Below, in pieces: positions 11,320 to 58,374 of a DNA stretch of 64,000 nt. Origin of the DNA: Candidatus Saganbacteria bacterium CG08_land_8_20_14_0_20_45_16 (GTDB lineage: Bacteria; Margulisbacteria; WOR-1; O2-12-FULL-45-9). The stretch is taken from NCBI GenBank assembly GCA_002774365.1, contig PEYM01000148.1, forward strand, positions 692 to 64,691, given 5' to 3'. Position 1 is the first letter of the stretch. Each line of letters starts with the position of its first letter. The notes below the pieces were generated by a model that worked only from the letters and a program-made list of their open reading frames with translations, did not search any database and had not been told where the DNA came from. Both the position numbers and the translations under genes were made by a program.

Positions 11320-11325
11320 CTGCCA

Positions 11326-31414: not shown

Positions 31415-31418
31415 ATCG

Positions 31419-32864
31419 ATGAAAGAGAAAACAGGTGGATTAAGCTTTTGGTTTTGTTTCTTTTTTATTTTTCTTTTTGCTTTATTTTTTTTCTTTTCCT
31501 TTGCCCACATCAGTTTGACCGCTTATGAAAGCCTGAGTTTTCCTTTTGCTGAGGATCAGGCGATGTTTCATCAATCTTTTTGGAATTTGACGCATAATGG
31601 TTCACTGGCCATTACAACAGCCTTAAATAATTATAATAATGTTTTTGGCATGCACTTTACCCCGATTTTGTTTTTCCTGGTGCCGATCTATCTTTTGAAT
31701 CAAAGCCCTGTCTCCCTTATATTGATAAGCATTATGAGCTTAGCTTTATCGGGGATTTTTATCTTTTTATCTACCCATAAACTTGCTGACAACCCTTGGC
31801 TAGCGGGAGCTGTGGTTTTTCTCTATTTCACTTATTTGCCGCTGACCTTTTTAGCTTCTCAGGGCTTTCGTTATCTAATCATAGGCCTTTTCTTTTTGTC
31901 TGGGGCTGTCTTTTTTTATCTGAGTAAAAGGTTTTGGCCAATGTTTTTATTTCTGATTTTAACCTGCCTGTGCCGAGAAGATATCTCGTTGGTCGTGATT
32001 GGTTTTTCTCTCTTAGCCTTGTTTGATAAACGCTCAGCTCGCTGGCGGTATTGGCCGGCCATTTTGGGCCTTTCTTATTTTATTCTTGTGGTCTCTTGGA
32101 TAATGCCTAACTTAAATGGTACGGGGGGGCAAGGGGGCTTGGGCTTTGCCGCTTATAGCGCCTTTGGTGATACCCCATTGAAAATCTTAATCTCTATGGT
32201 GACGAATCTCCCATTGCTCTATCAGATGCTGATTATGCCTCATCATTTTATATTTTTTAGCGAGCTTTTCTCGCCACTTTATTATTTGCCGCTGCTCTCT
32301 CCTTGCTGGGTGTTACTTCCCTTTGCTTATTGGCTGATCTTGCTTTTGTCGTCAGTTAGCGCGCATGCCAATGCGCAATATTGGTATGTAGCACCGCTTC
32401 TTCCTTTTATTTTTATTGCCTTAGCAGCAGTGTTAAAGAAGATTTTGGTTTGGGGTGACAGAAGGTGGCGCTTGGGAACATTGGGGGTGAGCCTGATTTT
32501 AGTCTTGCTTATGCACTCGGCTTATCTTGGGCCAGGAGGACGTAGATTATTTAATGGTTTCCACGCAAGATCAAACCATCAGTTAGAGAGAGTGCAGAAG
32601 TTGTTTGACCAAATTCCCAGGGGAGCTTCAGTCATGACCCAGGCCAATTATCTGCCTTATCTCTCGAGTCGTAGGGTCATTGTTCTGCCACGGCCTGATC
32701 CAGCAACTGACTATCTGGTTGTTGATGCCACTGATTTTTGGTGGCCTTTGCCTAAACCAGAAATTGACAAATTCCGCATTGAAATGATTGTCTCTGGCCG
32801 ATATAAATTGTTAGATGAACTTGAAGGGATTTCTCTTTATAAACGACAAGAAGGTAAAGAATGA
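31419..32864 (+). CDS. DUF2079-family polytopic membrane protein (paralog, no lectin domain)
   Basis: 481 aa, multi-TM. Motifs parallel the previous gene (AEDQAMFHQSFWNL...FGMHFTPILF). Confidence 0.5.
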   Translation: MKEKTGGLSFWFCFFFIFLFALFFFFSFAHISLTAYESLSFPFAEDQAMFHQSFWNLTHNGSLAITTALNNYNNVFGMHFTPILFFLVPIYLLNQSPVSLILISIMSLALSGIFIFLSTHKLADNPWLAGAVVFLYFTYLPLTFLASQGFRYLIIGLFFLSGAVFFYLSKRFWPMFLFLILTCLCREDISLVVIGFSLLALFDKRSARWRYWPAILGLSYFILVVSWIMPNLNGTGGQGGLGFAAYSAFGDTPLKILISMVTNLPLLYQMLIMPHHFIFFSELFSPLYYLPLLSPCWVLLPFAYWLILLLSSVSAHANAQYWYVAPLLPFIFIALAAVLKKILVWGDRRWRLGTLGVSLILVLLMHSAYLGPGGRRLFNGFHARSNHQLERVQKLFDQIPRGASVMTQANYLPYLSSRRVIVLPRPDPATDYLVVDATDFWWPLPKPEIDKFRIEMIVSGRYKLLDELEGISLYKRQEGKE

Positions 32865-34621
32865 TAGCAAGGGTAAAAAGCTTTTTTCTAATAGTAGATA
32901 TGCGTTTTCTTGTTTTTTATGGGTTGTTTTTTTTGTTTCCGCACCCCTTGGCTAAAGACATTAATTCAATAGTTTTTCTGAGCTTAACTTATATTTCAGT
33001 AATAATTTTATTTAAGCGATTTACGGATTTGACTAATTTTGAGATTCTGTTTTATGTTTTACTGGCTATTGCTTTTTCTGGGCTTCATCTTCTTCACACC
33101 CAAGAATATGGTCCAACTGGTTTAGAAGAAAATATGAAGCGGGTCATTAATGGACCTTGGCGCTATCGTATTCTGGTTCCAGAGTTGATGAATTTTTGCC
33201 AATGGTTATTTAGAGTAGGGCAAATGGGCCTTAGGGCTGGCTTTCGCTTCTTTTTCCTTTCTCAGGTTTTTTTGACTAGCTATCTCATGCTCAAAAACGT
33301 CTTAAAGGCGAAAAGAGAAGTTTCGTTTTTTCTCCCTTTGCTCTATTTGTTTATGATCCCCTTTTCTTGGTTTCTTTTGTATGAGACTGATTTTCCGGAG
33401 ATTTATTTTTCGACTTTGTTGCTAATAGCGATTGTTTCTGGCCGGCGGCCACTTATCTTTCTCTCTTTTATCCTCGGGCTGCTTAATCGCAACAGTATTA
33501 TCTTTGGCCTCTTTTTCTATTTTTTTTACACTATTTTTTCTCTGCCGTTAAGCTTTGCTGATCTAAAGAAGTTATTAATTGAGAAGCGCAGAGACTTTTA
33601 TTTGATGGGTGGTTTAGTGTTGAGCATACTTGTTTTTAGGGTGGTGACAATTTGGCTTTATGGGGAGACATATTTTTCCGAGGACAAATGGCTAGAGAAT
33701 TTGCGTTATTGGCAATACTATTGGCACACTTTTTGGTCTGGTGCTAATTGGGTTGTCAATTGTTTTTCTGTTGGGGACCGCTGTGTTTCCTCTTTTCCTC
33801 GCTTGCTTTCTTTTGCCGGCGGGATATATTTGCTCTTGTTTTTATTTTGGAAAAAATTGGACAAAAAGTTTGCTTTTTCGTTCTTGGGTGCGGGGATTGT
33901 CTTTGGCTTTTTCTTTTTTAGGTATTGCAACCTTTTTGAGACCAGAGGGGCCTTTGTGCTCCTCCCATATTTTATTTATGCCTTGGGCCAAATGTTTTCT
34001 GGAGAGCAAAGGAATTGGCAGAGCAAGGATTTTTATCGGTTTTTTTGTTTCTTAGTGATTGCAGTTGTAATTGTTACTATCCCTCTTTTGGCTGAGGGGA
34101 TTTTGGTAAATTATAAAGCGGCGCGTACGCCTGTCTTTTCTCAGTTTGACTTTAACAATGGTTCTTTGATCGGTGTTAGGAAAGTTTTAGTGGCAGGTGA
34201 TTTTACGGTTGGCTTAACCAGTCGCGAGTCTGAGCCAGGAGACTGTCTTTTGGTGGCTGGAGCTGGCTGTGGCTATGCGGCAATTAATTTGCCGGTTAAA
34301 TCTAGGACAGAGTATCTTTTGTCTGGAGATTTCAAGACCAAAAATTTGGCTCTCAAGGATAAGAAAGTCGGTTTTGGGGTCTTTTATCTCCTTGAATTTA
34401 AGTACCGCAAATACTTTGCTAATGATGATAACAGTGATGATACGATCTCGCACCAGCATCTAGGTGATTTGCAAGGGACAACCGATTGGCACAGGGTGGA
34501 AGATCGCTTTAGGACAGGCGATGATACCCAGATGGTCAGGATTGCAATCGGTTTTGGTAATCAGGGGTGGGGTTCTGGAGAAATCTGGGCTGATAACATT
34601 ACTTTAAAAGAACTAAAATAG
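32861..34621 (+). CDS. Polytopic membrane protein with a C-terminal CBM4_9-like beta-sandwich domain
   Basis: 586 aa. About 10 TM helices. The C-terminal ~170 aa (TEYLLSGDFKT...GTTDWHRVEDRF...GEIWADNITLKEL) have the same architecture as the 28841 C-terminus. Confidence 0.45.
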   Translation: MIARVKSFFLIVDMRFLVFYGLFFLFPHPLAKDINSIVFLSLTYISVIILFKRFTDLTNFEILFYVLLAIAFSGLHLLHTQEYGPTGLEENMKRVINGPWRYRILVPELMNFCQWLFRVGQMGLRAGFRFFFLSQVFLTSYLMLKNVLKAKREVSFFLPLLYLFMIPFSWFLLYETDFPEIYFSTLLLIAIVSGRRPLIFLSFILGLLNRNSIIFGLFFYFFYTIFSLPLSFADLKKLLIEKRRDFYLMGGLVLSILVFRVVTIWLYGETYFSEDKWLENLRYWQYYWHTFWSGANWVVNCFSVGDRCVSSFPRLLSFAGGIYLLLFLFWKKLDKKFAFSFLGAGIVFGFFFFRYCNLFETRGAFVLLPYFIYALGQMFSGEQRNWQSKDFYRFFCFLVIAVVIVTIPLLAEGILVNYKAARTPVFSQFDFNNGSLIGVRKVLVAGDFTVGLTSRESEPGDCLLVAGAGCGYAAINLPVKSRTEYLLSGDFKTKNLALKDKKVGFGVFYLLEFKYRKYFANDDNSDDTISHQHLGDLQGTTDWHRVEDRFRTGDDTQMVRIAIGFGNQGWGSGEIWADNITLKELK

Positions 34622-34627
34622 GACATT

Positions 34628-35839
34628 ATGCAGGCAAACAAAATCGCAGTGGTGGGGGGCGGGATAAGCGGGCTGGTTACAGCTTACTATCTATTAAAAA
34701 AGGGTTATCAAGTTACCCTCTTTGAAAAAGAAGCAGAGCTTGGTGGTTTAGCCTCTACCTTCCCAGTTAAGGGGACCCGCCTGGAAAAGTTTTACCACCA
34801 CTTTTTTGCCCAAGATACGCTAGCCCTTGAATTGATAGAAGAATTGGGCCTTAAGGATAAATTTTATTGGGCTTTTCCTCGGATGGGCTTTTTTAGCAAG
34901 GGGACAACTTACCCATTTACCACGCCACTAGACCTTTTAGCTTTTCCCCCTCTCTCCTTACCAGAGCGGCTCAAGTTTGGCCTTTTTAGTTTCAAGGTTA
35001 AGCAAGAAACAGATTGGCAGAAACTGGAAACAAAAACAGCTAAGGAGTGGTTGATTGAAAATTTGGGTACAAATATTTATCAAGAGGTTTGGCAGCCGCT
35101 CTTGCGGGCAAAGTTTGCTGAACACGCCGACAAAATCCCTGCTTTTTGGGTTTGGGGGAGGCTCAAAGCAAGAGGAAAATCTCGCTCAGCTTTTGGCTGG
35201 CGGGAAAAACTTGGTTATTTAAAAGGGAGCTATCAAGTCTTAATTGACGCGTTGGCCGCTAAGATTACAGGGCTCGGCGGAGCAATCAAACTCGGCCAAG
35301 AGCTTAAAACCTTTCCCCTCCCTGGCTTTGATCGGACAATTTTGACTATCCCTCAAGTTAGCCAGGACTTTGGTCTTAAATACCTGGGCAATATTTGTTT
35401 GATCATTAAGACCAAACAGCGTTTGTCAAATTATTATTGGCTTAATTTGGCAGATAATAGTATTCCCTTTTGTGTGATTGTTGAGCATAACAATGCTTTT
35501 GATTCCCCGCTTTATCAGGGGGAGCGTTTTCTCTTTCTCTCTAGCTACCTTGACCACCAGAGCGATTTTTGGCAGCTTACCGACCAAGAGCTTTTGACCA
35601 CTTATCTAGCTGGGTTACAGAAGATCTACCCAGCTTTTAAGCGTGAAGCACTCCTTGATTATTATGTTTTTCGAGAAAAGTTTGCGCAACCCTTGCCAAC
35701 TTTGGGCTATTCAAAGAAAGTCCCTCCTTTCAAAATTAACGAAAAACTTTATCTGGTCTCTAATATGCAAATCTATCCAGAAGATCGCGGGATCAATGAT
35801 ACAATTAAATTAATATGCAAATTTATCGAACAGTTCTAA
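34628..35839 (+). CDS. FAD/NAD(P)-binding flavoprotein (amine-oxidase / UDP-galactopyranose-mutase-like)
   Basis: N-terminal dinucleotide fold VVGGGISGLVTAYYL...TLFEKEAELGGLAST. Embedded among glycosyltransferase genes. Confidence 0.6.
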   Translation: MQANKIAVVGGGISGLVTAYYLLKKGYQVTLFEKEAELGGLASTFPVKGTRLEKFYHHFFAQDTLALELIEELGLKDKFYWAFPRMGFFSKGTTYPFTTPLDLLAFPPLSLPERLKFGLFSFKVKQETDWQKLETKTAKEWLIENLGTNIYQEVWQPLLRAKFAEHADKIPAFWVWGRLKARGKSRSAFGWREKLGYLKGSYQVLIDALAAKITGLGGAIKLGQELKTFPLPGFDRTILTIPQVSQDFGLKYLGNICLIIKTKQRLSNYYWLNLADNSIPFCVIVEHNNAFDSPLYQGERFLFLSSYLDHQSDFWQLTDQELLTTYLAGLQKIYPAFKREALLDYYVFREKFAQPLPTLGYSKKVPPFKINEKLYLVSNMQIYPEDRGINDTIKLICKFIEQF

Positions 35840-37251
35840 CTTTAGCCTTAATTTTAGTAGTGCAGGCGGTGCTTTTTCAGCCATATTTAAGCGAGCCGTT
35901 TGAACGCGATGAGGGGGCTTATGCTTACATTGCCCAGCGTCTGTCGTCGGGCGAGCTGCCATATCGAGATAGTTACGATCATAAGCCACCAATGATCTAT
36001 TTTATTTACGCGTCAGTCTTTAAGTTCTTTGGGACCTCAATGGCCGCGATCAGGTCTTTTACCTTGCTTGTTTCGCTGTTAACAACCTTAGCCGTCTTTT
36101 TCTTGGCCTGGCTTATTCTCGGTCGCTTTGGGGCAATTGTTTCTGCTTTGCTTTACGCTTTTTATGCTGGGAATCCTTACATTCAAGGGACTTCTGCTAA
36201 TACTGAGACCTTTATGGTCTTACCAATGGTCCTGTCTTTGGCTTTTTTCTTATTGGCTTTGCGGCGAGAGCAGAAACTCGGCTGGCTCTTTTTAGCTGGT
36301 CTATGTTCTGGCTTAGCCGTGATGATCAAGCAGGTTGCCCTGCTTAATTTTTTGGTTATTCTTGGTTATTACGTTTTTATTTGTCTGCGCCAGCGCAAGG
36401 ATTGGTCAGGGGTTGCGGCGCTACTAATTGGCTTAGCCGTTGTGCCAATGCTGACAGTTGGATATTTTTTCCTTAAGGATGCCTGGTCAGCCTTGCTTCA
36501 TGGCTACCTTTTAGAAAACCTGCTTTATGTCTCGCGCAAGGTTTGGGTCTGGCCGAGGCTTTGGCTGGTGTTACAAGAACTTGGGCTTTTGTGGGGCCTA
36601 TCAGCTCTGGCAATTATGCTTATCTGGTTTAACGAAAAAGAGGATAAATTTAAAATTATTCTAGCTTGGGCCCTGGCCTCGGGTTTAGGGGTTTTTATGG
36701 GACGAGCCTTTTACGGCCACTATTTTATTCAAGTGGTGCCAGCGCTGGCAATTTTAGCGGGCTACAGCCTCTTAAAAATTGCTGGTTCAAATTGGCGCTT
36801 GGTGCTTTTGGCCTTTTTAGCCCTGATCTTTTCCATGGACCTCTTTAGTCGGATCTCTTTTGGCTTATTATCACCTGAACTGATCTCGCAAAAAAAATAT
36901 GGGATCAACAATTTTGTCGTGGCAGGGCAGGTTGCGGAGTTTATCAAGCAAAAAACCCTGCCCAAAGACAGGCTCTTTATTTGGGGGGCAGAGCCCGAGG
37001 TTTATTTTTATAGTCAACGCGCGGCCGCCTCGCACTATATTTATTATTATCCATTACTATACAAAGATAAGAAATCTCAACAAGCCAGGCTTGCTCTGCT
37101 GACAGAATTAAAAGAGGCACCGCCCGAGTATATAATCTGGGTTGAGCCGAGGGTTGTTTATGGTCCACTTTTGAATTATGTTAAAGCTGGTTATAATTAT
37201 CTGGCTAGTTTTGGCCGCTGGCAAATTTGGCGGCGAAAGAGGATTAAGTGA
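35815..37251 (+). CDS. ArnT/PMT-family GT-C glycosyltransferase (GT39/GT83-like)
   Basis: 478 aa. First periplasmic loop has a DEGAY acidic motif and a YDHKPPM motif typical of ArnT/PMT enzymes. About 11 TM helices. Confidence 0.65.
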   Translation: MQIYRTVLTLALILVVQAVLFQPYLSEPFERDEGAYAYIAQRLSSGELPYRDSYDHKPPMIYFIYASVFKFFGTSMAAIRSFTLLVSLLTTLAVFFLAWLILGRFGAIVSALLYAFYAGNPYIQGTSANTETFMVLPMVLSLAFFLLALRREQKLGWLFLAGLCSGLAVMIKQVALLNFLVILGYYVFICLRQRKDWSGVAALLIGLAVVPMLTVGYFFLKDAWSALLHGYLLENLLYVSRKVWVWPRLWLVLQELGLLWGLSALAIMLIWFNEKEDKFKIILAWALASGLGVFMGRAFYGHYFIQVVPALAILAGYSLLKIAGSNWRLVLLAFLALIFSMDLFSRISFGLLSPELISQKKYGINNFVVAGQVAEFIKQKTLPKDRLFIWGAEPEVYFYSQRAAASHYIYYYPLLYKDKKSQQARLALLTELKEAPPEYIIWVEPRVVYGPLLNYVKAGYNYLASFGRWQIWRRKRIK

Positions 37252-37991
37252 ACAAAACGATCGTGGTCATGCCGGCGTACAATGCGGCCAAGACCTTGGC
37301 TAAGACCTTTCAGGACATCCCCAAAGACAAGGTCGCTGAAATTATTTTGGGCGATGATTGCTCAGAGGACCAAACTATCTTGATCGCCCAATCATTGGGG
37401 CTTGAGGTCCTTAAGACCCCGTGCAATCTTGGCTACGGCGGCAACCAAAAAATGCTTTACCAAGAGGCGCTGCGACGCGGGGCCACCATTGTGGTCCTGC
37501 TTCACCCAGATTGGCAATATGACGCTACCAAAATTCCTGAGCTGATCGCACCGATTGCGGCTGGCGAAAAAGATGTTATGTTAGGTTCAAGGATACTTGG
37601 CGGCCGGGCCGGCACGCTAGCTGGCGGCATGCCGCTTTATAAGTACCTGTCCAATCGTTTTCTGACCTTGGTCGAGAATATGACCTTTAACTTCTCTTTG
37701 TCTGAGCTGCATACTGGCTTTCGCGCTTTTAGTGCTCCGGTGCTAAAAAAGGTCAGCTATGAGCTTAATTCCAATGACTTTGTTTTTGATTCTGAGATGT
37801 TAGCCCAGATTGCCGTTCAAAAATTTAGGGTGGGAGAGGTGCCTGTGCCGTGCCGTTATTTTCCAGAAGCTTCAGAAATTAATTTTTGGCGCAGTAGTTG
37901 TTATGGTCTCCAGACCTTGCTGGTCTGTCTGAAGTTCATGTTGCATAAGCTAAAAATAAAAGAGTTGGAGCAATTCATTGCAAAGTGTTAA
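37248..37991 (+). CDS. GT2 glycosyltransferase (dolichyl/polyprenyl-phosphate sugar synthase-like, soluble)
   Basis: 247 aa. GT-A motifs VVMPAYNAAKTL, ILGDDCSED and a DxD-like LHPDWQYD. No TM segments. Confidence 0.8.
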   Translation: MNKTIVVMPAYNAAKTLAKTFQDIPKDKVAEIILGDDCSEDQTILIAQSLGLEVLKTPCNLGYGGNQKMLYQEALRRGATIVVLLHPDWQYDATKIPELIAPIAAGEKDVMLGSRILGGRAGTLAGGMPLYKYLSNRFLTLVENMTFNFSLSELHTGFRAFSAPVLKKVSYELNSNDFVFDSEMLAQIAVQKFRVGEVPVPCRYFPEASEINFWRSSCYGLQTLLVCLKFMLHKLKIKELEQFIAKC

Positions 37992-47476: not shown

Positions 47477-48355
47477 ATGCCTATCTTGGTCAATATTTTT
47501 AAGACCCTGCGGCCTAATCAATGGACAAAAAATTTCTTTATCTTTGCTGGTCTAGTTTTCTCCCTTAAGTTTTTTAATCCTTGGTTTCTCTATAAAGTTA
47601 TTGAGGCTTTCTTGGTCTTTTGCGCTTTGGCTAGCTCGGTCTATATTATTAATGATTTGGCTGATGTTGCAGGAGACCGGTTGCATCCAAAAAAGAAATT
47701 TAGACCAATTGCCAGTGGCGCGCTTAGCCCGCCTTTAGCTTTAACCATTGCTTTACTTCTAATTATTGGTTCGCTTGCGGCTGCTTTTTATTTGGATCTG
47801 GCTTTTGCCTTGGTGGCAGTAACCTATTTGGTCTTAATGATTTGTTACACTTTTTGGTTGCGCAGCATAGTGATCCTAGATGTGTTTACCATTGCGCTTG
47901 GTTTTGTGCTACGGGCTATTGCTGGGGTGGTGGTTATTGGCGTGGTTTTGTCACCTTGGTTGATCATTTGTACGCTTTTATTGTCCCTTTTTATTGCTCT
48001 GGGCAAAAGGCGGCATGAGTTGATCACTTTGGCCAGTGCTGCTAGTCACCGCAAGATCCTTGATGAATATAATCCCCAGCTTTTGGACCAGCTAATCTCA
48101 ATTTCTGCTGGTGCGACGATTGTCAGCTATGCTTTGTACTCCCTCTGGCCAGACACGGTGGCTAAATTCCAGACCCAAAACCTTATTTATACCTTGCCGT
48201 TTGTGGTCTACGGGATCTTTCGTTATCTTTACTTAATTTACAAAAAAGAGCGCGGCGGCCGGCCAGAAATGATCTTGTTAACTGATTTCCCTTTGATCTT
48301 AGGCTTGTTGCTTTGGGTTGTTACTGCTGGGGCCCTGCTTTACTGGGCTAGATAA
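47477..48355 (+). CDS. UbiA-superfamily prenyl-phosphate transferase (decaprenyl-phosphate phosphoribosyltransferase-like)
   Basis: 292 aa, about 8 TM helices, first Asp-rich motif NDLADVAGD (NDxxDxxxD). Similar in size and architecture to DPPR-synthase-type UbiA homologs. Confidence 0.65.
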
Positions 48356-49920
48356 TGAAGGGTCGTCAAGCGATTATTATTGGTGCCGGCCCAGCCGGGT
48401 TAACTGCTGCTTATGAGCTGCTAGACAAGACTGCGATCAAACCCATTGTTGTTGAGAAAGAAAGTTGTGTTGGCGGGATCGCCAAAACCCTTAATTATAA
48501 AGGCAACTGCATTGATTTTGGCGGGCACCGCTTTTTTTCTAAGTCTGATCTGGTGATGGCTTGGTGGCAAAAGTTCCTGGTCATTCAAGATTTTCCTGAC
48601 CAAGAAGAATTAAGGCTCAAGGTTAAGCGTAATGATTACCAGCAAAAAAATATTGACGGTGACCCAGAAAAAAAAGACCTAGTTTTCTTAATTCGCAGCA
48701 GGGTTTCAAGGATCTATTACCTGCGGCGTTTCTTTGATTATCCCCTGGCTTTAAACGTTAATTTTGTTAAGAATTTAGGCGTGGCCAGACTTTTTAAAAT
48801 AGGCTGGAGCTATCTTTGGTCGCGCCTGGTTCCACGCAGGAAAGAGCGTTCCTTAGAAGACTTTTTAATTAATCGGTTTGGCCAAGGCCTGTATGAGCTT
48901 TTTTTCAAGGATTATACTCATAAGGTGTGGGGCCGGCCAGCCCAAGAGATTGATGCCCAGTGGGGTCGCCAAAGGATCAAGGGGCTTTCCATTGTTAAGG
49001 TGATTAGGCACGCGATTTTTAAAGAAAAGCAAACAGAAACAAGCTTAATTGAAAAGTTTTACTATCCTAAATATGGGCCAGGCCAATTGTGGGAAGAGGT
49101 GGCCAAACAAATTGTTGCCCGCGGCGGCACGATAATGCTTAATAGCGAGATTGTGAGCGTGACCTCGACGCCAGGATCGCCTGGCCGAATTAAAAATGTT
49201 GTGGTACGCTCAACAATTGATAATTCTGAGACGACCTTAGAGGCTGATTATTTTATTTCTTCAATGGCCCTCAAGGACTTGATCAATTGCTTGACAGGAA
49301 CCTTGCCGCTGGCGGTGCGAACCGTGGCCAGCCAGCTGCCTTACCGTGATTTTATTACTGTTGGTTTGCTCCTTAAGAAACTCAAGCTGCAAAATAAGAC
49401 TCAAGTAAAAACGGCCAATGACCTGGTCCCAGATAATTGGATTTATATTCAAGAAAATGATGTGCAACTTGGCCGGCTACAGATTTTTAACAATTGGAGC
49501 CCGTATTTATTAAAAGACAGCAGTTTGGTTTGGCTTGGCTTGGAATACTTTTGTGATCAGCAAGACGCGCTGTGGCAGATGAGCGACGAAGCGCTTATCA
49601 AGTTTGCGACTAAAGAGGTGGAAAAGCTTGGCTTAGTTGATCAAAAAGAGGTGCTTGATGGGGTTTGTTATAGAATGACCAAAGCTTATCCTGCTTATTT
49701 TGGTTCGTATGATCAGATCCAGGTTTTAAGAGATTATTTGAACCAAGTAGATAATCTTTATCTGATTGGCAGGAACGGCCTGCACCGTTATAATAATATG
49801 GATCATTCAATGTTAACAGCGATCAAGACTGTGGAGAACATCTCTCGTGGTTTGACGGATAAGAGTGGCATTTGGCAAATAAATGCGGAAGGAGCTTATC
49901 ATGAAGCAAAAAGGGATTAG
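48355..49920 (+). CDS. FAD/NAD(P)-binding flavoprotein oxidoreductase
   Basis: 521 aa. [15 protein letters not shown]...[10 protein letters not shown] dinucleotide-binding motif. TGATG overlap with the UbiA gene. Confidence 0.6.
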
Positions 49921-51598
49921 CACAAGCACAGATCCAGGTCCTTTTTCTTTTAAGATGGCTTTTGGGCTGGCTTTTTTTGCTTCGCTGCTGGTGACTTTGG
50001 TGGTTTTCTTTAATATTGTTTTGCGTTTGGATATTTTTCACTGGGACGAATCGCATCATGCTGTTTATGGGTTGTGGGTATCTCAAGCCTTGCGGGCCTT
50101 TGATTGGTCAGGATTTTGGTACTGGACCAATCATCAGGCTTATTGGCCCTTTTTTCATTCTTGGTTGCTAGCGATTTTTTTCTTGTTTTTTGGAGTTAGC
50201 GCCACCAGTGCCCGTGGCTTAAGTGTTTTGATTTTCTTTGTTACTGCCGTACTTACTTACTTGGCTGGCAGCAAAATTTTAGACAAAAAAGATTGGCGGC
50301 CTGGCCTCTTGGCCACCGCGCTGGTCTTAACTTCACCATTAATGATCTCTTTTGCGGCTCAAAATATGCTGGAGGGTTTAGGGGGGGTGGAGCTAATTGC
50401 TGCTGTCTACGCTTATCTAATTGCCAAAGAGAAAAAGCAATGGTACTGGTTTCTTTTGCTCGGCGGCTTGCTGGGACTCACCGTTATCACTAAATATAAT
50501 TATGCGGTGCTGATCATTGCTTCTTTTGTGGTAGTTGATTTGCTTGATATTTTTGAGCTGCCTAGGGTTGCGGGCCAGGCTAAAGCTATTGCAAAGCCAA
50601 AATCCAAGCATCAGTTAGTTAAAACCGTGCCAACTTTTTTGGGCTTTGAAAAAGCGCCGCTTTTGGATTGGCTGCGCCAAACTGGAGTGACGGCCCTGCC
50701 GATTTTATTGATCACCCTGCTGTGGTTTTTTGGTGCTGATGCGGAGAGAAAATGGCAAATGCTTTTATGGACCAAGAGCGAGGTGGCAGGGGGCCAGGCA
50801 ACTCTGAGCGGCTTTTGGCAGAATTTATTATTTTATCCTCAAGCCATAGTTAATGATTTTGTGCTATCTTACTGGTTGGGGCTACTGGTCTTACTGGCCA
50901 ATCTTTGGCTGTTGCTTGGCCTTAAATGCCGCCGGATCTTAAAGCTTCAAGCAATTGTTTGGACAACCCTGTTGCTCTCGATCTTTGTTATTGGCAATAA
51001 GATGAACCGGAACATTTATTTTTTGGCGCCGGCTATTTTTATGATTTTTTCCGCCTCGTTTTTCTATTATTTCGACTTGGCTAGAGCAAAGCTGAAAAAT
51101 TACCGTCTTCTTTTTCTGTTGCTTTTGCTTGGTCTGCTGGTTTTAGCTGGCTTGGCTTGGCCCAGGGCGGTTAAGATGTATAGTGGCGATATTCAGGACA
51201 TTAAGCATGGCCTTCATGTTAACCGAGAGACCAAAGAGCGGGTGGCAGACAGCTTGCGATTTTTTCGTGACAACATTCCCCAGACAGGCTCAATTTCTGC
51301 TGGTAGTTTGTATTATGTGTCGCCTTATGTGCTTTACATTTACTTTCGAAACTGGCAGGCCCCGGTTTTGACTGCTTTTCAAATGAGCGACCCAAATTTT
51401 GCTAAGAGCGACTTTTTTATCGCGCTGGAATACCAAGACACCCAAAGGTTCGAAGCCCCAATGCTGGAGTGGCTAGCTGTGCTTAGGAAGAACGAAGCCG
51501 CGCAGCAGCTTCAATTGTGGCGGCAGAAATCCTGGCCTGACCTTGGCTTAACGGCAAAAATCTATATCAAGCCAAACTTGAATCTTTTAGGCAGATGA
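49901..51598 (+). CDS. GT-C-fold membrane glycosyltransferase (ArnT/PMT-like)
   Basis: Start at ATG 49901 (RBS GGAAGGAG at 49888-49895) is preferred over track 49883. Multi-TM. Acidic motif WDESHH in the first extracytoplasmic loop. Confidence 0.55.
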
Positions 51599-51610
51599 AC
51601 CAGCAGTATT

Positions 51611-51619
51611 TGTTATAAT
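51611..51619 (+). promoter_or_regulatory. Extended -10 element (TGtTATAAT) upstream of the SDR epimerase gene
   Basis: TGTTATAAT at 51611-51619. RBS AAGGAGG at 51653-51659, start ATG 51665. Confidence 0.3.
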
Positions 51620-51664
51620 ATGATTGTTGCGTGCTTATCTTGAACGCGTCTTAAGGAGGTAAAA

Positions 51665-52702
51665 ATGCGAGTTTTAGTTACTGGTGGGGCTGGTTTTTTA
51701 GGCATTAACTTAATCAGGTATCTATTAAATAAGGGGTATAACAAAATTGTTTCTTTAGATCTGGTGGATTTTGATTATCCAGAGCGAAATAAGGTTAGGG
51801 TTGTGACTGGGGACATTCGAGGCCAGCAATTAGTTGAGCAAACGCTGCAAGGGATTGATCTGGTGGTCCATTGCGCAGCAGCCTTGCCTTTATATAAAAA
51901 GGCAGATATCTTTTCAACTGACATTGAAGGTACGAGGAATCTTCTAACCGCTGCTTTTCGGCATAATTGCCAACGCTTTGTCCACATTTCTTCGACGGCT
52001 GTTTATGGGATCCCTGACCATCACCCACTTTACGAAGATGATAAAAAAATTGGGGTAGGGCCGTACGGTGAGGCTAAAATCGAGGCTGAAGAGGTCTGCT
52101 TGGAATTTCGGCAGCAGGGCAAGTGTGTGCCGATCATTAGGCCTAAGTCATTCATTGGTCCTGAGCGCCTGGGTGTTTTTGCTTTGTTTTATGATTGGGC
52201 CAAGGATGGCAAGGGTTTTCCCATGATTGGCAGCGGCAAAAATCGCTATCAACTTTTGGATGTTGAAGATTTGTGTGAAGCGATTTACCTTTGTTTAACT
52301 AAGGATCAAAAAATTGTTAATGATACTTTTAATATCGGGGCCAAGGAATTTACGACCATGAGTGAGGATTATCAAGCGGTTTTAGATTATGCTGGTTTTG
52401 GCAAAAAGATCAAGCCTTTCCCCGCTGCCCCTCTCATTTGGACTTTACGTATCCTAGAGTTTTTGAAACTTTCGCCGCTTTATAAATGGGTTTATGAAAC
52501 TGCCTCCACAGATTCTTTTGTCGGGATTGAAAAAGCTGAAAAGATCTTAGGGTTTACCCCCAAATATTCCAATAAAGATGCCCTGCTTAGAAACTACAAA
52601 TGGTACTTAGAGAATCTTCATAAGTTTGAAAATGCGAGCGGTATTTCGCACCGGGTCCCTTGGAGCCAAGGGATCTTGAGATTGGTCAAGAATTTTTTCT
52701 AG
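51665..52702 (+). CDS. NAD-dependent epimerase/dehydratase (extended SDR family)
   Basis: 345 aa. VLVTGGAGFLG Rossmann motif and a YxxxK catalytic motif (YGEAK). Confidence 0.8.
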   Translation: MRVLVTGGAGFLGINLIRYLLNKGYNKIVSLDLVDFDYPERNKVRVVTGDIRGQQLVEQTLQGIDLVVHCAAALPLYKKADIFSTDIEGTRNLLTAAFRHNCQRFVHISSTAVYGIPDHHPLYEDDKKIGVGPYGEAKIEAEEVCLEFRQQGKCVPIIRPKSFIGPERLGVFALFYDWAKDGKGFPMIGSGKNRYQLLDVEDLCEAIYLCLTKDQKIVNDTFNIGAKEFTTMSEDYQAVLDYAGFGKKIKPFPAAPLIWTLRILEFLKLSPLYKWVYETASTDSFVGIEKAEKILGFTPKYSNKDALLRNYKWYLENLHKFENASGISHRVPWSQGILRLVKNFF

Positions 52703-54493: not shown

Positions 54494-54733
54494 ATGATTA
54501 TGGACAATTTTGAATTGCAGCGAATTTTTGAGCAAGACAAAAATCGCATACTTGGTAAGATTGAAAGGGCCAAGGAACAATGGCAAGTGAACTGGGAAAA
54601 AGTTCAAGGAGATCTAGCCGCTGAAGCCCAGCTGATTTGGTTCAATCTCCAGATAAAAATTATGGAGATTGAGGCGCTAGAAGAACTAAAGCAAATGGAA
54701 GAAAAGATAAAAGGAACGATCGAGGAAAAATAG
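54494..54733 (+). CDS. Hypothetical small coiled-coil protein
   Basis: 79 aa, heptad-rich. Preceded by an extended -10-like TGTGATAAT at 54435-54443. No recognisable family. Confidence 0.3.
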   Translation: MIMDNFELQRIFEQDKNRILGKIERAKEQWQVNWEKVQGDLAAEAQLIWFNLQIKIMEIEALEELKQMEEKIKGTIEEK

Positions 54734-54748
54734 AGAGGGAGAGCTGTT

Positions 54749-56176
54749 ATGCGTTGGCTAAAAATTATCATGACAGATCGCTTAGCCATTGGGATTATCA
54801 TTGGTCTAATTATCTTTGGTGGGTTGACCCCGGTCTTTAGGGCCATGGTTGATGTGCCTTATGTTGGGGCTTATTTTTATGAAATGAAAACAGTCCTGCC
54901 GCGGCTTAACCAGCAGTTTTTTATGATCTCAGAGGTTGATTGTATTGGTTATTATTCTTATTTGCGTTCCTTGATGATCGATCATGACCTTGAGTTTCAA
55001 AATGATTTTACGCTCTTTGGCTGGCCCAGGCGGGCGCAGGAAAAGACCGACCTTGGCCATACAACCAATCCTTGGTCAGTTGGCCCGGCTATTTTGTGGG
55101 CGCCGGCTTTTGTGTTAGCGCACCTTTACTCCCTCCTGCTTAATGCCGTGGGACATCCCGTGCCTTTAAACGGTGTGTCTTTTGTTTATGATTTTTTTAT
55201 TGTGGTGTTTTCGATGGGCTCTGGTTTGCTCGGACTTATTTTTATTTATAAATTTTTGCGTTTTTTCTTTTCTGCGGCCTTGAGCCTGACAACTGTGCTA
55301 GCTTTTTTTTATGCTTCAACTTTGGTCTTTTATCAGTTTCATGAGCCGACCATGTCTCATGTTTTGAGTGTTTTTGCGGTTTCAGGCTTTATATATTTTT
55401 GGTACGATAAATTTTTGCAAAAGCGTAGCGGCGATTGGCTCTGGCTAGGTGTCTGGGCCGGCCTAATTATTTTGATCCGTTCGCAAAATATATTTTTTGT
55501 GCTTGGCCCGCTTTTGGCCGAAACTATAGTTATGTTCAAGAGAGAGCAATCTGTTGGTTTTAGGTGGCTGCTGGGTCCTGCTCAATTGTTGATTATGGCC
55601 TTTTTATGTTTTATTCCGCAAATGCTGGCTTGGAAGTTTTTGTACGGCTCTTGCTTTACTATTCCCCAGGGTGAGGGTTTTATGAAATGGGGCGCTCCGC
55701 AAATTCCGTCCTTGCTTTTTTCAACTAATCATGGCTTGATCACGTACACCCCGATTATGCTTTTTTGTTTAATTGGGTTTCTCTTAGTTAATCGAGTTAG
55801 CAAGAGGGAGCAAATGCTGGCTGGCACATTTTTCTTGATCTTTTGTTGTGAGCTATATATTAATGCAGCTGCCAGTGATTGGGGGGCTGGTTGGGCTTTT
55901 GGGGCGAGGCGGTTCTCTGCCGGCGCGATCATGTTTGCCTGGGGGTTGGGGATGTTCTTGCGTTGGAGCAATTATCGTCAGTGGTTGCGTTACCTGGTTT
56001 TATCAGGTGTGGCCTTATTAGTGATTTTTAATTTGCTCTTTTATTTTCAATGGGCTTACGGCCTGATCCCTCGGGGAGAAGCCTTGACCTTAACTCAATA
56101 TTTTTCCGGTAAATGGCAGGCTTTAACCCTTTGGCTGACAGTCTTGCGCCAGATTTTTGAGGTAATTTTTAGCTAG
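54749..56176 (+). CDS. Hypothetical polytopic membrane protein (possible glycosyltransferase-like)
   Basis: 475 aa, about 11 predicted TM helices. No motif I can name confidently. Confidence 0.4.
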   Translation: MRWLKIIMTDRLAIGIIIGLIIFGGLTPVFRAMVDVPYVGAYFYEMKTVLPRLNQQFFMISEVDCIGYYSYLRSLMIDHDLEFQNDFTLFGWPRRAQEKTDLGHTTNPWSVGPAILWAPAFVLAHLYSLLLNAVGHPVPLNGVSFVYDFFIVVFSMGSGLLGLIFIYKFLRFFFSAALSLTTVLAFFYASTLVFYQFHEPTMSHVLSVFAVSGFIYFWYDKFLQKRSGDWLWLGVWAGLIILIRSQNIFFVLGPLLAETIVMFKREQSVGFRWLLGPAQLLIMAFLCFIPQMLAWKFLYGSCFTIPQGEGFMKWGAPQIPSLLFSTNHGLITYTPIMLFCLIGFLLVNRVSKREQMLAGTFFLIFCCELYINAAASDWGAGWAFGARRFSAGAIMFAWGLGMFLRWSNYRQWLRYLVLSGVALLVIFNLLFYFQWAYGLIPRGEALTLTQYFSGKWQALTLWLTVLRQIFEVIFS

Positions 56177-56191
56177 AGAGAGGAGAAGACA

Positions 56192-57514
56192 ATGAGGATT
56201 TTAATTATTGGTTCCGGTGGTCGCGAGCACGCTTTGGTTTGGAAAATTTCGCAAAGTAAAAAGGTTAAAAAAATCTATTGTGCCCCTGGCAACGCCGGCA
56301 CTTCTGAGCTGGCGGAGAACATTAATCTTAAAGTTGATGATCTTCCGGGCCTCTTAAAGTTTGCCAAAGAAAAAAAGATTGATTTAACTGTGGTTGGCCC
56401 AGAAATCCCGCTGGTCTTGGGAATTGTTGATGAATTTGAAAAGGCTGGGTTGAAAATCTTTGGTCCATGCAAAGCCGGAGCGAAGATTGAAGGCTCAAAG
56501 GTTTTTTCCAAAGAGTTCATGGTCAAGTACGGTATTCCTACTGCCCAAGCCGGGATTTTCTCAAAAATTGATGACGCCCTAGCTTATCTTGATGAGGTAG
56601 GCGCCCCGATTGTTGTCAAAGCTGATGGTTTGGCAGCTGGCAAGGGAGTGATTGTTTGCTCTACCAAAAATGAGGCAGTTGAGGCAGTCAATCTGATAAT
56701 GAAAGACAAAGCTTTTGGTGCGGCTGGGAGCAAAGTTGTTATTGAAGAATGTTTGGTGGGTGAGGAAGCTTCAATTATTGCAATTTGTGACGGCGAGACA
56801 ATTTTGCCGCTAGCTTCATCCCAAGACCACAAACGGGTTTTTGACAAAGATAAAGGCCCAAATACTGGTGGCCTGGGGGCATATTCGCCGGCTCCTGTTG
56901 TGACTGATAGTTTAATGGAGCAGATTGATAAAACAGTGCTCCAGCCTTTTGTTTCTGGCATGAAGCAGGAGGGGATCAATTATAAAGGGGTAGTTTATGC
57001 TGGGGTAATGGTAACCAAGCAAGGGCCCAAGGTTTTAGAGTTCAACGCTCGCTTCGGTGACCCTGAAACCCAGCCGATTATGATGAGGCTTAAGAGTGAT
57101 TTAGTAGACCTCCTATTTTCGACTATCGATTCTCGATTATCGACTTTCTCCCTTTCCTGGGACGATCGCGCCGCAGTTTGTATTGTCCTAGCTGCCGGCG
57201 GCTATCCTGATAAATATGAGAAAGGTTTACCAATTACTGGCCTTGATAAAGTGCCGCAGCTTGATAATGTGATGGTGTTTCATGCTGGCACTAGATTGAA
57301 TAATAAAAATGTAGAGGCGACCTTTAGGTCGCCAGAAACAGAAAGTCGAAAAATAGTACTCACCAATGGAGGCAGAGTTTTGGGCGTGACAGCTTTGGGG
57401 GATGGGATTAAGTTGGCAATTAAAAAGGCCTATCAAGCGGTTGAATTGATTAAATTCAAAGATATGCATTTTAGGAAAGACATTGGCAAAAAGGCGCTAA
57501 AGTATCTCAAGTGA
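56192..57514 (+). CDS. purD: Phosphoribosylamine--glycine ligase
   Basis: 440 aa. ATP-grasp fold and conserved PurD N-terminus MRILIIGSGGREHAL. Confidence 0.9.
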   Translation: MRILIIGSGGREHALVWKISQSKKVKKIYCAPGNAGTSELAENINLKVDDLPGLLKFAKEKKIDLTVVGPEIPLVLGIVDEFEKAGLKIFGPCKAGAKIEGSKVFSKEFMVKYGIPTAQAGIFSKIDDALAYLDEVGAPIVVKADGLAAGKGVIVCSTKNEAVEAVNLIMKDKAFGAAGSKVVIEECLVGEEASIIAICDGETILPLASSQDHKRVFDKDKGPNTGGLGAYSPAPVVTDSLMEQIDKTVLQPFVSGMKQEGINYKGVVYAGVMVTKQGPKVLEFNARFGDPETQPIMMRLKSDLVDLLFSTIDSRLSTFSLSWDDRAAVCIVLAAGGYPDKYEKGLPITGLDKVPQLDNVMVFHAGTRLNNKNVEATFRSPETESRKIVLTNGGRVLGVTALGDGIKLAIKKAYQAVELIKFKDMHFRKDIGKKALKYLK

Positions 57515-58374
57515 GTATATCCAAAACCACTCAAGGTTTCCTAACCATCTTGTTTGCCTCTTCTTTGTTTGGCTTGATGGCTCTGCTAGTAAAAATAGCC
57601 GCAGGGGAATTTTCAGCTGCCCAGATCCTTTTCATGCGGGGGATAATTGGTTTAGCTTTGATTGTTCCGTTGATCTGGGCCAGGCGAGCCTCTGCTAATC
57701 CGCAAACCTTAAAGCCGCTAGTTTGGCGGGGGATATCTGGAGGAATTGCTGTTTCTCTTTATTTTTACGCGATTACTAAGATCCCTTTAGCTGATGCTTC
57801 AATCTTAGCCAATGCCTATCCGATCTTTGCCGCGTTTTTCTCGGCTGTTTACTTAAGGGAACGGGTAAAGCTAATAACGCTGGTTGCGTTGCTGGTCTCG
57901 CTCTCTGGTATGTTTTTAATTATGCAGCCGCACTTTAGTTACTTTGATTTTGCTTATGTTTTAGCTGGGATCTCAGCCATTTTTGCTGGCCTAGCCATTA
58001 CCTTGGTGCGCCAGCTGCGTCAAAGTAACTCATCTTTGATCATCATGCTGTCGCAGATCATTGGGATTTTGGTCTTTTCTGCTCCGTTTGTCGTGTCAAA
58101 TTTTAGCTGGCCAGCGAATTCTGCCTGGCTGCTGCTCCTCATGATTGGTTTTGTTAGCACGGTCTCTCAGTTGATTTTTACCATCCCTTTTAGGTCTGTC
58201 CCGGCTGCTGAGGGGAGTATTGTCGCCATCAATCATGCAGCCTTTGCCGTACTTTTTGCCGTGATATTTTTGGCTGAACCGCTCTCGGCTAATTTCTTGC
58301 TCGGCAGCCTGCTGATCTTTGGCAGCAGCCTTTACATTATTCTACGACAAGAATCCCCCCTCCAAAAAAACTGA
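57511..58374 (+). CDS. EamA/DMT-family transporter
   Basis: 287 aa, 10 TM helices in two 5-TM EamA repeats. Confidence 0.7.
   Translation: MSISKTTQGFLTILFASSLFGLMALLVKIAAGEFSAAQILFMRGIIGLALIVPLIWARRASANPQTLKPLVWRGISGGIAVSLYFYAITKIPLADASILANAYPIFAAFFSAVYLRERVKLITLVALLVSLSGMFLIMQPHFSYFDFAYVLAGISAIFAGLAITLVRQLRQSNSSLIIMLSQIIGILVFSAPFVVSNFSWPANSAWLLLLMIGFVSTVSQLIFTIPFRSVPAAEGSIVAINHAAFAVLFAVIFLAEPLSANFLLGSLLIFGSSLYIILRQESPLQKN

Follow-up and report, generated by a model that had tools for sequence, protein, structure and literature searches.

Four consecutive genes encoding a UbiA-family membrane transferase, a flavoprotein, a glycosyltransferase of the GT-C class and a NAD-dependent epimerase were analyzed in contig PEYM01000148.1 of Candidatus Saganbacteria bacterium CG08_land_8_20_14_0_20_45_16. 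The whole stretch of DNA analyzed, called the window here, comprises 64,000 nucleotides (positions 692 to 64,691 of the contig). A preliminary description had proposed that these genes form a pathway for a polyprenyl-phosphate-linked pentose donor, with the logic used by Corynebacterineae to make decaprenyl-phospho-arabinose. Open reading frame (ORF) analysis of the window confirmed that the four genes are real, lie one after another on the + strand and carry the motifs quoted for them, and Pfam assigned their products to UbiA, Amino_oxidase/NAD_binding_8, PMT_2 and Epimerase, respectively. These genes and two candidates located downstream are the following:

47477..48355, + strand: predicted polyprenyl-phosphate phosphoribosyltransferase (PPPRS), or decaprenylphosphoryl-5-phosphoribose (DPPR) synthase, of the UbiA superfamily; 292 aa (NF008977, match to Rv3806c, synteny in relatives)
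48355..49920, + strand: flavoprotein resembling UDP-galactopyranose mutase (UGM), of the NCBIfam PRK07208.1-2 'hypothetical protein' family, predicted to be soluble; 521 aa (NF005546, fold, active-site residues)
49901..51598 (the ORF opens at 49883), + strand: GT-C1, PMT_2/ArnT-like glycosyltransferase; 565 aa, or 571 aa from 49883 (Pfam PMT_2)
51665..52702, + strand: PPPRS-associated extended short-chain dehydrogenase/reductase (SDR), a putative GalE-like NAD-dependent epimerase/reductase; 345 aa (Pfam Epimerase)
54749..56176, + strand: GT-C2, PMT_2 family, a possible second transferase whose membership is based on proximity only; 475 aa (Pfam PMT_2)
57511..58374, + strand: EamA/DMT-family transporter, a weak candidate flippase; 287 aa (Pfam EamA)

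The junctions between the four genes are tight, as had been described. The accB stop codon TAG immediately precedes the ATG of the UbiA homolog, which overlaps the flavoprotein gene by 1 nt (TAATG). The flavoprotein gene overlaps GT-C1 by 20 nt, given a GT-C1 start at the ATG at 49901; this codon has an AAGGAG Shine-Dalgarno sequence 7 nt upstream and is the start used by the gene callers in six metagenome copies of the contig. A gap of 66 nt separates GT-C1 from the SDR gene, whose stop codon TAG immediately precedes the recJ ATG. However, this coupling does not serve as evidence of joint function. The efp, accB and recJ genes are part of the same tightly packed gene string, and 30 of the 46 same-strand junctions of the window measure 10 bp or less (median gap of 0.5 bp), so tight spacing is a trait of this compact genome and provides no evidence of a shared function for the four genes.

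Regarding the first gene, the placement of its product in the DPPR-synthase family and not with UbiA or CyoE was borne out by the family scores. The protein matches Pfam UbiA with 73 bits, the NCBIfam DPPR-synthase equivalog NF008977 with 293.3 bits (cut-off 234) and NF008978 with 218.9 bits (cut-off 207). Other models of the superfamily gave 32.8 (cyoE), 26.3 (ubiA_proteo) and 23.9 bits (ChlG), and the cyoE, ubiA, ChlG and GGGP-synthase models all lie at 24-33 bits against cut-offs of 210-436. The best solved relative is Rv3806c from M. tuberculosis (PDB 8j8j, E = 3.1e-42), with residues 4-288 collinear with its residues 14-299, and the match to chlorophyll synthase in the PDB sequence search has E = 6e-3. 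Moreover, the Asp-rich NDxxDxxxD...RPI motif at residues 58-81 aligns with NDVRDVEADREHPTKRFRPIAAG of Rv3806c, which is the stretch substituted with alanine in the 8j8k variant. The UbiA homolog is a bare protein of 292 aa in which Pfam shows no extra domain and no fused HAD-type phosphatase. Its closest relatives (60-69% identical) belong to Margulisbacteria, WOR-1 and Saganbacteria, where the gene is always found directly after efp-accB, and the NCBI pipeline names the Margulisbacteria homologs DPPR synthase. Judging from family membership, the UbiA homolog is a PPPRS of the Rv3806c type, with the activity predicted for that family, and not a quinone/heme prenyltransferase.

The order of genes up to this point is shared by the relatives: pilMN, secretin, gpsA and plsY on the opposite strand, and then efp-accB-UbiA. 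What follows the PPPRS gene differs from one relative to another:

L087 and L172: nothing
L088: SDR
L170: SDR (76% identical)-recJ-purD
L171: DUF362 (8870-9292)
L089 (Saganbacteria): toxin-antitoxin pair, then DUF362 (9605-10687)-recJ-purD
L179/L180 (WOR-1 bacterium RIFCSPHIGHO2_01_FULL_53_15): GT-C1 ortholog, then intein-containing DUF362 (9629-12280)

Such variation in the slot after efp-accB-PPPRS is what the accessory genes of one pathway would be expected to show. Only the lineage of the window has the flavoprotein between PPPRS and GT-C1, a second GT-C between recJ and purD, and EamA after purD. The flavoprotein is found at this site in none of the seven Margulisbacteria/Saganbacteria relatives. 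The wider set anchored on PPPRS comprised 80 metagenome loci with PPPRS relatives 45-55% identical, and contained neither the flavoprotein nor GT-C1 (0/80 each) and one distant SDR (1/80); their neighbors were compared by Pfam, as false antisense ORFs from contigs of high GC content had contaminated the BLAST clusters. The four-gene linkage is therefore not conserved in relatives, against what had been supposed, and the conserved parts are the PPPRS-SDR pair and, in one WOR-1 relative, the PPPRS-GT-C adjacency. In that relative (L179/L180), the GT-C1 ortholog is 46% identical and lies directly after PPPRS with a 4-nt overlap and no flavoprotein. Since this is the sole close GT-C1 homolog with context, the possibility that the flavoprotein and GT-C1 form a co-mobile two-gene insert was rejected, and the flavoprotein alone is the newcomer.

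The commonest neighbor of this PPPRS subfamily is DUF362 (PF04015), usually immediately downstream and on the same strand (about 12-20 of the loci L090-L169). DUF362 and SDR genes never occur together after PPPRS in the Margulisbacteria/Saganbacteria relatives examined, which suggests that they may fill the same functional slot. There is no DUF362 gene in the window, and no solved structure matches DUF362 by sequence in a PDB search. The DUF362 gene of L179/L180 encodes 883 aa and includes an intein with a LAGLIDADG homing-endonuclease domain.

Annotated records show PPPRS in other company: a DprE1-like FAD-binding oxidoreductase, a short SDR and a GT39 in Chondrinema, and a HAD phosphatase and GtrA on a Lactococcus plasmid. 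In addition, a PPPRS homolog 38% identical over 97% of the query is present in MT837543.1, an unannotated 6.6-kb 'Bacteriophage sp.' record from a human fecal sample, in line with the description of a phage that carries such a PPPRS system (PMC11127046).

The SDR was assigned to Pfam Epimerase with 141 bits and also matched 3Beta_HSD and GDP_Man_Dehyd, with no adh_short match. It presents the GxxGxxG (GGAGFLG) and YxxxK (YGEAK) motifs. Its catalytic Thr is not followed by the Asp-Glu pair of 4,6-dehydratases (STAVYG in this protein). The DprE2-like protein of Chondrinema gave no tblastn match in the window. From these features, the SDR is predicted to be an extended, GalE-type enzyme and not a classical SDR of the DprE2 type (~250 aa).

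The orthologs of the SDR are found next to PPPRS in distant lineages. Those from L088 and L170, 76% identical, adjoin PPPRS with no flavoprotein there, and the Haloterrigena SDR that is divergently adjacent to PPPRS is 50% identical over 346 aa (E = 3e-117). In the plasmid collection, the four best matches are all haloarchaeal, 49-52% identical and located 0.3-3.3 kb from PPPRS on four of four megaplasmids; the next two, from Streptomyces and Nonomuraea (41-42% identical), are directly beside a UbiA homolog. All six non-rhizobial matches of this collection with at least 41% identity lie at most 4 kb from a PPPRS homolog. The SDR-PPPRS pair is conserved from Margulisbacteria to haloarchaea and actinomycetes, and this, together with the GT-C ortholog adjacent to PPPRS in the WOR-1 relative, agrees with the earlier view that the GT-C and the SDR belong with the PPPRS.

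A different arrangement was observed on the Sinorhizobium fredii NGR234 plasmid pNGR234a (L176, 299.6-307.7 kb), beside nodS/nodU. It comprises a PPPRS-like gene of the UbiA family with a HAD fusion, genes for two extended SDRs and for a flavoprotein of the GMC family, an SMR transporter gene with a similarly small, unannotated gene after it, and a gene for a 658-aa membrane protein. One of the SDRs is 34% identical to that of the window, and similar SDR matches occur on about ten rhizobial plasmids. The cluster has the appearance of a lipid-linked pentose system carried by a symbiosis plasmid.

GT-C1 matches Pfam PMT_2 with 53 bits (cut-off 26) and has 10 hydrophobic segments, with an acidic WDESHH motif after the first transmembrane segment. 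The PDB sequence search with GT-C1 gave no match. In its structural model, the top 23 fold matches are all GT-C enzymes, with weak scores (E of 2e-3 or worse; template modeling score, TM-score, of 0.5 or less) and with ArnT as the best by TM-score (~0.5), but the model is of low confidence (predicted local distance difference test, pLDDT, of 65; six sequences) and supports just a GT-C fold. GT-C2 matches PMT_2 with 30 bits, has nine hydrophobic segments and lies between recJ and purD, a position from which it is missing in L170 and L089. With GT-C1 and GT-C2, two PMT_2 GT-C genes lie within 7 kb. A small conserved ORF of 77 aa without Pfam match (54500-54740; called in L081/L084) is located between recJ and GT-C2, directly upstream of the latter. 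The gene for the EamA protein (Pfam EamA, 95 bits; eight hydrophobic segments) and the end of purD have 4 nt in common. Among the genes next to PPPRS relatives, EamA is also the second commonest Pfam family (9/148 neighbors).

The flavoprotein presents the Pfam domains Amino_oxidase and NAD_binding_8 and a GAGPAG motif, with no predicted transmembrane segment, and its earlier classification as Rossmann-type and not of the DprE1 VAO type proved correct. It belongs to NCBIfam NF005546 (PRK07208.1-2, 'hypothetical protein') with 759.5 bits against a cut-off of 418, and scores 46.7 bits with the bacterial Glf model TIGR00031, below the cut-off of 303.75. For these two reasons it is filed here as UGM-like and not as UGM. 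The comparison with solved structures points to UGM. The best PDB sequence matches are eukaryote-type UGMs (E = 4e-15, and 1e-18 with a family profile), which are the sole solved sequence relatives beyond the dinucleotide-binding N-terminus. The AlphaFold model (pLDDT 78, predicted template modeling score 0.84) was compared with the PDB by Foldseek, and the 34 best matches are all UGMs (E down to 1e-27, TM-score 0.67-0.81), headed by those of T. cruzi and A. fumigatus (E = 1e-27, TM-score 0.72-0.81). The second fold class is protoporphyrinogen oxidase, with a TM-score of 0.64.

Furthermore, the active site of the A. fumigatus enzyme (AfUGM) has counterparts in the flavoprotein. AfUGM residues H63, Y104, Y162, W167, R182 and W315 correspond to H58, Y129, Y187, W192, R207 and W362, whereas Y317, R327, Y419, R447, Y453 and N457 correspond to Y364, R374, Y445, R473, Y479 and N481; the offset between chain and literature numbering of AfUGM was fixed by the Q107A and N207A mutant chains. 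All 12 residues are invariant in an alignment of 20 sequences from multiple phyla, and AfUGM Q107 and N207 are without conserved counterpart. The DprE1-like protein of the Chondrinema PPPRS locus gave no tblastn match in the window. On the basis of its sequence and predicted structure, the flavoprotein is UGM-like, and neither DprE1-like nor a generic amine oxidase. As it is of the UGM type, its most likely chemistry would be a flavin-N5-assisted interconversion of the pyranose and furanose rings of a sugar-1-phosphate ester, and not a DprE1-like oxidation at C2.

The family of this flavoprotein comprises at least 8,000 sequences at E <= 1e-10. The best non-self matches, among those listed, are 57% identical and scattered over many bacterial and archaeal phyla, with 50-57% identity from Cloacimonadota and Bacteroidota to Methanobacterium and bacteria of the Candidate Phyla Radiation (CPR). 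A set of 80 loci anchored on the flavoprotein, each from another GTDB species, was searched 10 kb to each side by tblastn with the UbiA homolog, GT-C1 and SDR of the window. Neither PPPRS nor GT-C1 homologs appeared in any of the 80 loci, and SDR homologs appeared in nine, directly adjacent in one. BLAST-based clustering of the neighbors gave no conserved partner, and an enrichment in GtrA and GT-C became visible only in Pfam and hydropathy counts. Among 119 immediate neighbors (~62 loci), the commonest Pfam families are GtrA_DPMS_TM and PMT_2 (13 each), in addition to PMT (4) and GT87 (2), while GT2 polyprenyl-phosphate-sugar synthases are rare (3/119). By hydropathy, large polytopic membrane ORFs make up 22% of the adjacent versus 6% of the non-adjacent ORFs (odds ratio 4.4, p = 5e-8), and small proteins with 3-4 transmembrane segments are also enriched beside the flavoprotein (odds ratio 8, p = 8e-6). 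In some cases the association is a fusion: to a C-terminal GtrA/DPMS transmembrane domain in a Nostoc metagenome-assembled genome (L007, 10001-12040), and to polytopic domains of ~535 aa with 6-9 transmembrane segments and no Pfam match in three Chitinophagaceae (L023, L038 and L042). A Bacteroidaceae contig (L039) has the order GtrA, SDR (28% identical to that of the window, 132 bits) and PRK07208 flavoprotein.

Related flavoproteins are found in a similar context. In an unrelated metagenome contig (L120), a flavoprotein of the PRK07233-like sister family lies directly upstream of a PPPRS and PMT_2 pair. The window itself contains a second module at 34628-37991, in which a 403-aa amine-oxidase-type flavoprotein (NCBIfam PRK07233 'hypothetical protein', 426 bits) is followed by a PMT_2/PMT GT-C of 478 aa and by a GT2 that resembles polyprenyl/dolichyl-phosphate hexose synthases (PpgS, AglJ), and the three genes overlap one another. 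Homology between this second flavoprotein and the 521-aa one is supported by hhalign (98.5%), but the former has neither the GGH loop nor the equivalent of R473, so there is no basis for inferring a shared chemistry. The flavoproteins are recurrent companions of polyprenyl-phosphate-sugar machinery, and not PPPRS-specific companions. In L181 (8001-10627), the flavoprotein beside a PMT_2 GT-C is of a third family: a GT-C1 homolog (33% identical) precedes a 356-aa DAO-type flavoprotein with a 4-nt overlap, in a neighborhood with lpxC, lpxD, uppS and cdsA.

Taking these data into account, the locus is, on balance, probably an extracytoplasmic glycosylation system with a polyprenyl-phosphate-linked pentofuranose donor, of the type called 'three-component systems with auxiliary epimerases' (Kelly et al. 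2024), to which a mutase-like flavoenzyme has been added. The PPPRS, as its family suggests, would use phosphoribosyl pyrophosphate (PRPP) to make polyprenyl-phosphate-ribofuranose as the 5-phosphate, and a phosphatase, perhaps encoded outside the window, would remove this phosphate. The SDR would then epimerize the lipid-linked ribofuranose to another pentofuranose, by analogy with ORF13 of Citrobacter youngae. The resulting donor would be flipped, possibly by the EamA/DMT protein encoded downstream, and GT-C1, and possibly GT-C2 too, would transfer the pentose to a periplasmic acceptor. The flavoprotein, as a later single-gene addition, would modify the donor a second time or supply a second furanose donor; an action on the PPPRS product is the part of the proposal with the lowest certainty. 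As far as the sequence tells, its substrate may be the lipid-linked pentose derived from the PPPRS, a different lipid-linked sugar or a nucleotide sugar.

Several points weigh against this proposal. The pathway as encoded in the window is incomplete. No 5-phosphatase of the PAP2, HAD, PHP or EEP types was detectable in the 64 kb, where HAD-IB, PHP and EEP proteins from other PPPRS loci were used as tblastn queries; another part of the genome may encode it. Homologs of GtrA and SMR were not found in the window either (MATE flippases were not searched for directly), and the assignment of the EamA protein as a flippase is weak, as its NCBIfam matches are weak ones to amino-acid exporters. In most other phyla the commonest neighbor of PPPRS is DUF362, and not an SDR or a GT-C. 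With regard to the flavoprotein, adjacency alone proves little in so compact a genome, and the absence of PPPRS from the 80 flavoprotein loci indicates that there is no general link between the two families. Finally, the literature on PRK07208, on UGM with GtrA and GT-C and on a lipid-linked galactofuranose mutase contains no characterized PRK07208 member, and no biochemical data were found there for any protein of this family, of the NF008977 PPPRS subfamily or of this SDR family.

Alternatively, the flavoprotein may be unrelated to the PPPRS, having come to lie in a densely packed operon by chance, and work as a cytoplasmic nucleotide-sugar mutase (e.g., UDP-Galp to UDP-Galf or a related furanose) for another system, leaving the UbiA homolog, the GT-C and the SDR as the only members of the pentose system. 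This is rather unlikely, but it is the most likely of the alternatives. It agrees with the reciprocal absence of the two genes from both sets of 80 loci and with the seven relatives that have no flavoprotein, and the AfUGM uridine-contact residues Y104, Y162 and W167 are retained. In addition, the operon also holds efp, accB and recJ, with tight spacing as the norm, and many further GT-C and GT2 genes of the window could use such a donor. On the other hand, the insertion point of the gene is precisely the junction of the PPPRS with its GT-C, stop and start codons overlap at either end of it, and an independent flavoprotein-PPPRS-GT-C arrangement exists in L120. Its family is enriched beside, and fused to, GtrA and GT-C proteins, which argues for lipid-linked rather than nucleotide-linked chemistry, whereas the GT2 polyprenyl-phosphate-sugar synthases that a UDP-furanose route to a GT-C requires are rare among its neighbors.

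Somewhat less likely again is the model of the preliminary description, in which the flavoprotein would stand in for DprE1 and the SDR for DprE2 without being their orthologs, and the two would produce polyprenyl-phosphate-arabinofuranose by oxidation at C2 and reduction of the keto group, before transfer by the GT-C. PPPRS loci do recruit several unrelated flavoproteins together with SDRs, such as the DprE1-like protein and short SDR of Chondrinema, the GMC protein and two SDRs of pNGR234a, and the PRK07233-like flavoprotein of L120, and for this reason the oxidase-reductase idea keeps some weight. The order in L039 mirrors Rv3789-DprE1-DprE2 and, with N5 of the flavin beside C1 in UGM, a slightly displaced substrate could offer C2-H to it. 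However, the SDR does not need the flavoprotein, as its orthologs in L088, L170, haloarchaea and actinomycetes lie near PPPRS where there is no flavoprotein, and SDR homologs near the flavoprotein are as scarce as described above. The flavoprotein keeps the whole catalytic set of UGM, including the His loop and three arginines, which points to a mutase rather than a dehydrogenase, the SDR is extended and not DprE2-like, and homologs of the two Chondrinema proteins are missing from the window. Oxidation followed by reduction at C2 is not supported here and, given that 76% identical SDR orthologs adjoin PPPRS without the flavoprotein and that the flavoprotein has a mutase active site, a partnership of the flavoprotein and the SDR in the manner of DprE1 and DprE2 is improbable.

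Finally, a lipid or pigment pathway with the UbiA homolog as an aromatic or isoprenoid prenyltransferase (menaquinone, ubiquinone, heme O, chlorophyll or carotenoid) and the flavoprotein as a CrtI/HpnE-like desaturase would fit the Pfam label, which says just 'UbiA prenyltransferase family', the JGI labels ('4-hydroxybenzoate polyprenyltransferase' for UbiA homologs and 'protoporphyrinogen oxidase' for the flavoprotein) and weak N-terminal matches of the flavoprotein to HpnE and CrtI models, but it is highly improbable and effectively refuted by the family scores of the UbiA homolog, with the desaturase and protoporphyrinogen-oxidase matches covering only the dinucleotide-binding N-terminus of the flavoprotein, a fold match to protoporphyrinogen oxidase that is worse than that to UGM, and PPPRS relatives elsewhere accompanied by GT-C/GT39, GtrA, phosphatases and DMT transporters.

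Concerning the wider surroundings of the locus, type IV pilus genes lie 3-9 kb upstream of the PPPRS gene (38.0-44.9 kb of the window), and pilin-like N_methyl proteins, PilM/N and secretin are also encoded at a fixed distance upstream of efp-accB-PPPRS in L087, L088, L171, L172 and L179. In the window and in the Margulisbacteria relatives, the oppositely oriented gpsA and plsY, and then efp and accB, separate the pilus genes from PPPRS. Further upstream, directly before the type IV pilin-like N_methyl genes at ~38.5-39.5 kb, a large envelope-glycosylation island (25874-34621) encodes a GT2 of the PgfS/ArnC-like kind, a 586-aa protein without Pfam match and three membrane proteins, of which one is PTPS_related and two are DUF2079 proteins, one of these with a CBM_4_9 domain.

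The core of the locus extends the route from PRPP, through polyprenyl-phosphate-pentofuranose, to a GT-C to Margulisbacteria, an uncultured sister lineage of Cyanobacteria in which this route had so far been named by automatic annotation only. In this lineage PPPRS is a constant member of the efp-accB neighborhood, and the extended SDR family that travels with PPPRS is a candidate for a single-enzyme epimerase determining the pentose on display. The claim that such a pathway would be new for this kind of organism cannot be maintained, since NCBI already names DPPR synthases in Margulisbacteria and systems of PPPRS, GT-C and SDR outside actinobacteria were published in 2024 (PMC11127046). The locus is ordinary in concept, and its interesting loose end is the flavoenzyme family. 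This is the more valuable by-product of the analysis: a very large, highly conserved and uncharacterized UGM-like family tied to GtrA and GT-C proteins. As a speculation that we consider doubtful at present, the PRK07208 flavoproteins could be a new class of UGM-like mutases that act on polyprenyl-phosphate-linked sugars, or that pass the flavin-bound sugar straight to polyprenyl phosphate. They would in this way make lipid-linked furanose donors for GT-Cs (or pyranose donors, from PRPP-derived furanoses) without UDP-furanose and, acting here on the PPPRS product, would yield a donor made by no described pathway. If it were true that the flavoprotein isomerizes or edits lipid-linked sugars, it would fill a gap among the enzyme types of envelope glycobiology and offer glycoengineering a new tool.

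Among the known systems, the closest functional reference is provided by Kelly et al. (PNAS 2024, PMC11127046), who described PPPRS, flippase and GT-C as a widespread extracytoplasmic pentofuranose glycosylation system; literature searches on PPPRS and GT136 found nothing later than this paper and its commentary. In Citrobacter youngae O1/O2 the system consists of ORF15 (PPPRS), ORF14 (MATE flippase), ORF12 (GT-C/GT136) and ORF13, a single cytoplasmic GalE-like SDR epimerase that alone converts undecaprenyl-phosphate-ribofuranose to the xylofuranose form (undP-Ribf to undP-Xylf). The same work reports that DprE1/DprE2 homologs accompany the PPPRS systems that add arabinofuranose, that some three-component systems carry extra epimerases or extra GT-Cs, some of them outside actinobacteria and with SDR epimerases, and that there is a precedent for a promiscuous GT-C. 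The window resembles the C. youngae system in its UbiA-family PPPRS, the neighboring GT-C and a GalE-like SDR (likened by its TGxxGxxG and YxxxK motifs) as the sole recognizable epimerase, with no DprE1/DprE2. It differs in that the window has neither a HAD-type phosphoribose phosphatase domain fused to the PPPRS nor a phosphatase encoded separately, in the EamA/DMT protein as the only flippase candidate recognized (MATE was not searched for directly), in a GT-C of the PMT_2 type, and in its location among housekeeping genes instead of an O-antigen cluster. The inserted UGM-like flavoprotein is a further difference, as FAD, flavins and oxidoreductases are not mentioned in PMC11127046.

The decaprenyl-phospho-arabinose pathway of Corynebacterineae (Rv3806c, Rv3807c, DprE1, DprE2, Rv3789 and the Emb/Aft GT-Cs) and its pilin version in P. 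aeruginosa PA7/Pa5196 (PsPA7_6245-6249 and TfpW; bioRxiv 10.1101/2020.04.19.049825) share with the locus the first enzyme, matched over its full length by Rv3806c, the logic of a lipid-linked pentofuranose delivered to a GT-C, and the presence of type IV pilus genes upstream. By contrast, the window has no DprE1 of the VAO/FAD_binding_4 type, classical-SDR DprE2, Rv3807c-type phosphatase or GtrA-like protein; its flavoprotein is of another fold class (GR2/UGM type) and its SDR is extended. Unlike in the TfpW system, the GT-C is not beside a pilin gene.

Known UGMs supply UDP-Galf to cytoplasmic Leloir transferases. The flavoprotein of the window shares with the eukaryote-type enzymes of A. fumigatus and T. 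cruzi (PDB 3ute and 4dsg) the fold, the GGH histidine loop and the equivalents of R182, R327, R447, Y419, Y453, N457, W315 and Y317, but it is only 17-19% identical to them, and its family is associated in genomes with membrane proteins of the GtrA-like and GT-C kinds, in some cases as fusions.

A last comparison concerns a haloarchaeal cassette found in Haloterrigena sp. KLK7, Natronococcus spp. and Halostagnicola larsenii which, according to annotation only, encodes PPPRS, a NAD-dependent epimerase, two GT-C/GT39 proteins, a PHP phosphatase, an LPG-synthase-like transmembrane protein and a DMT transporter. As it is uncharacterized, it is used here for comparison only and gives no functional reference. 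Unlike the window, it includes a PHP-domain protein, which is a candidate phosphatase, and the LPG-synthase-like protein, and has no flavoprotein. On the other hand, its PPPRS and SDR are 38-44% and 49-52% identical, respectively, to those of the window and, as in the window, two GT-Cs and a DMT-family transporter are encoded nearby.

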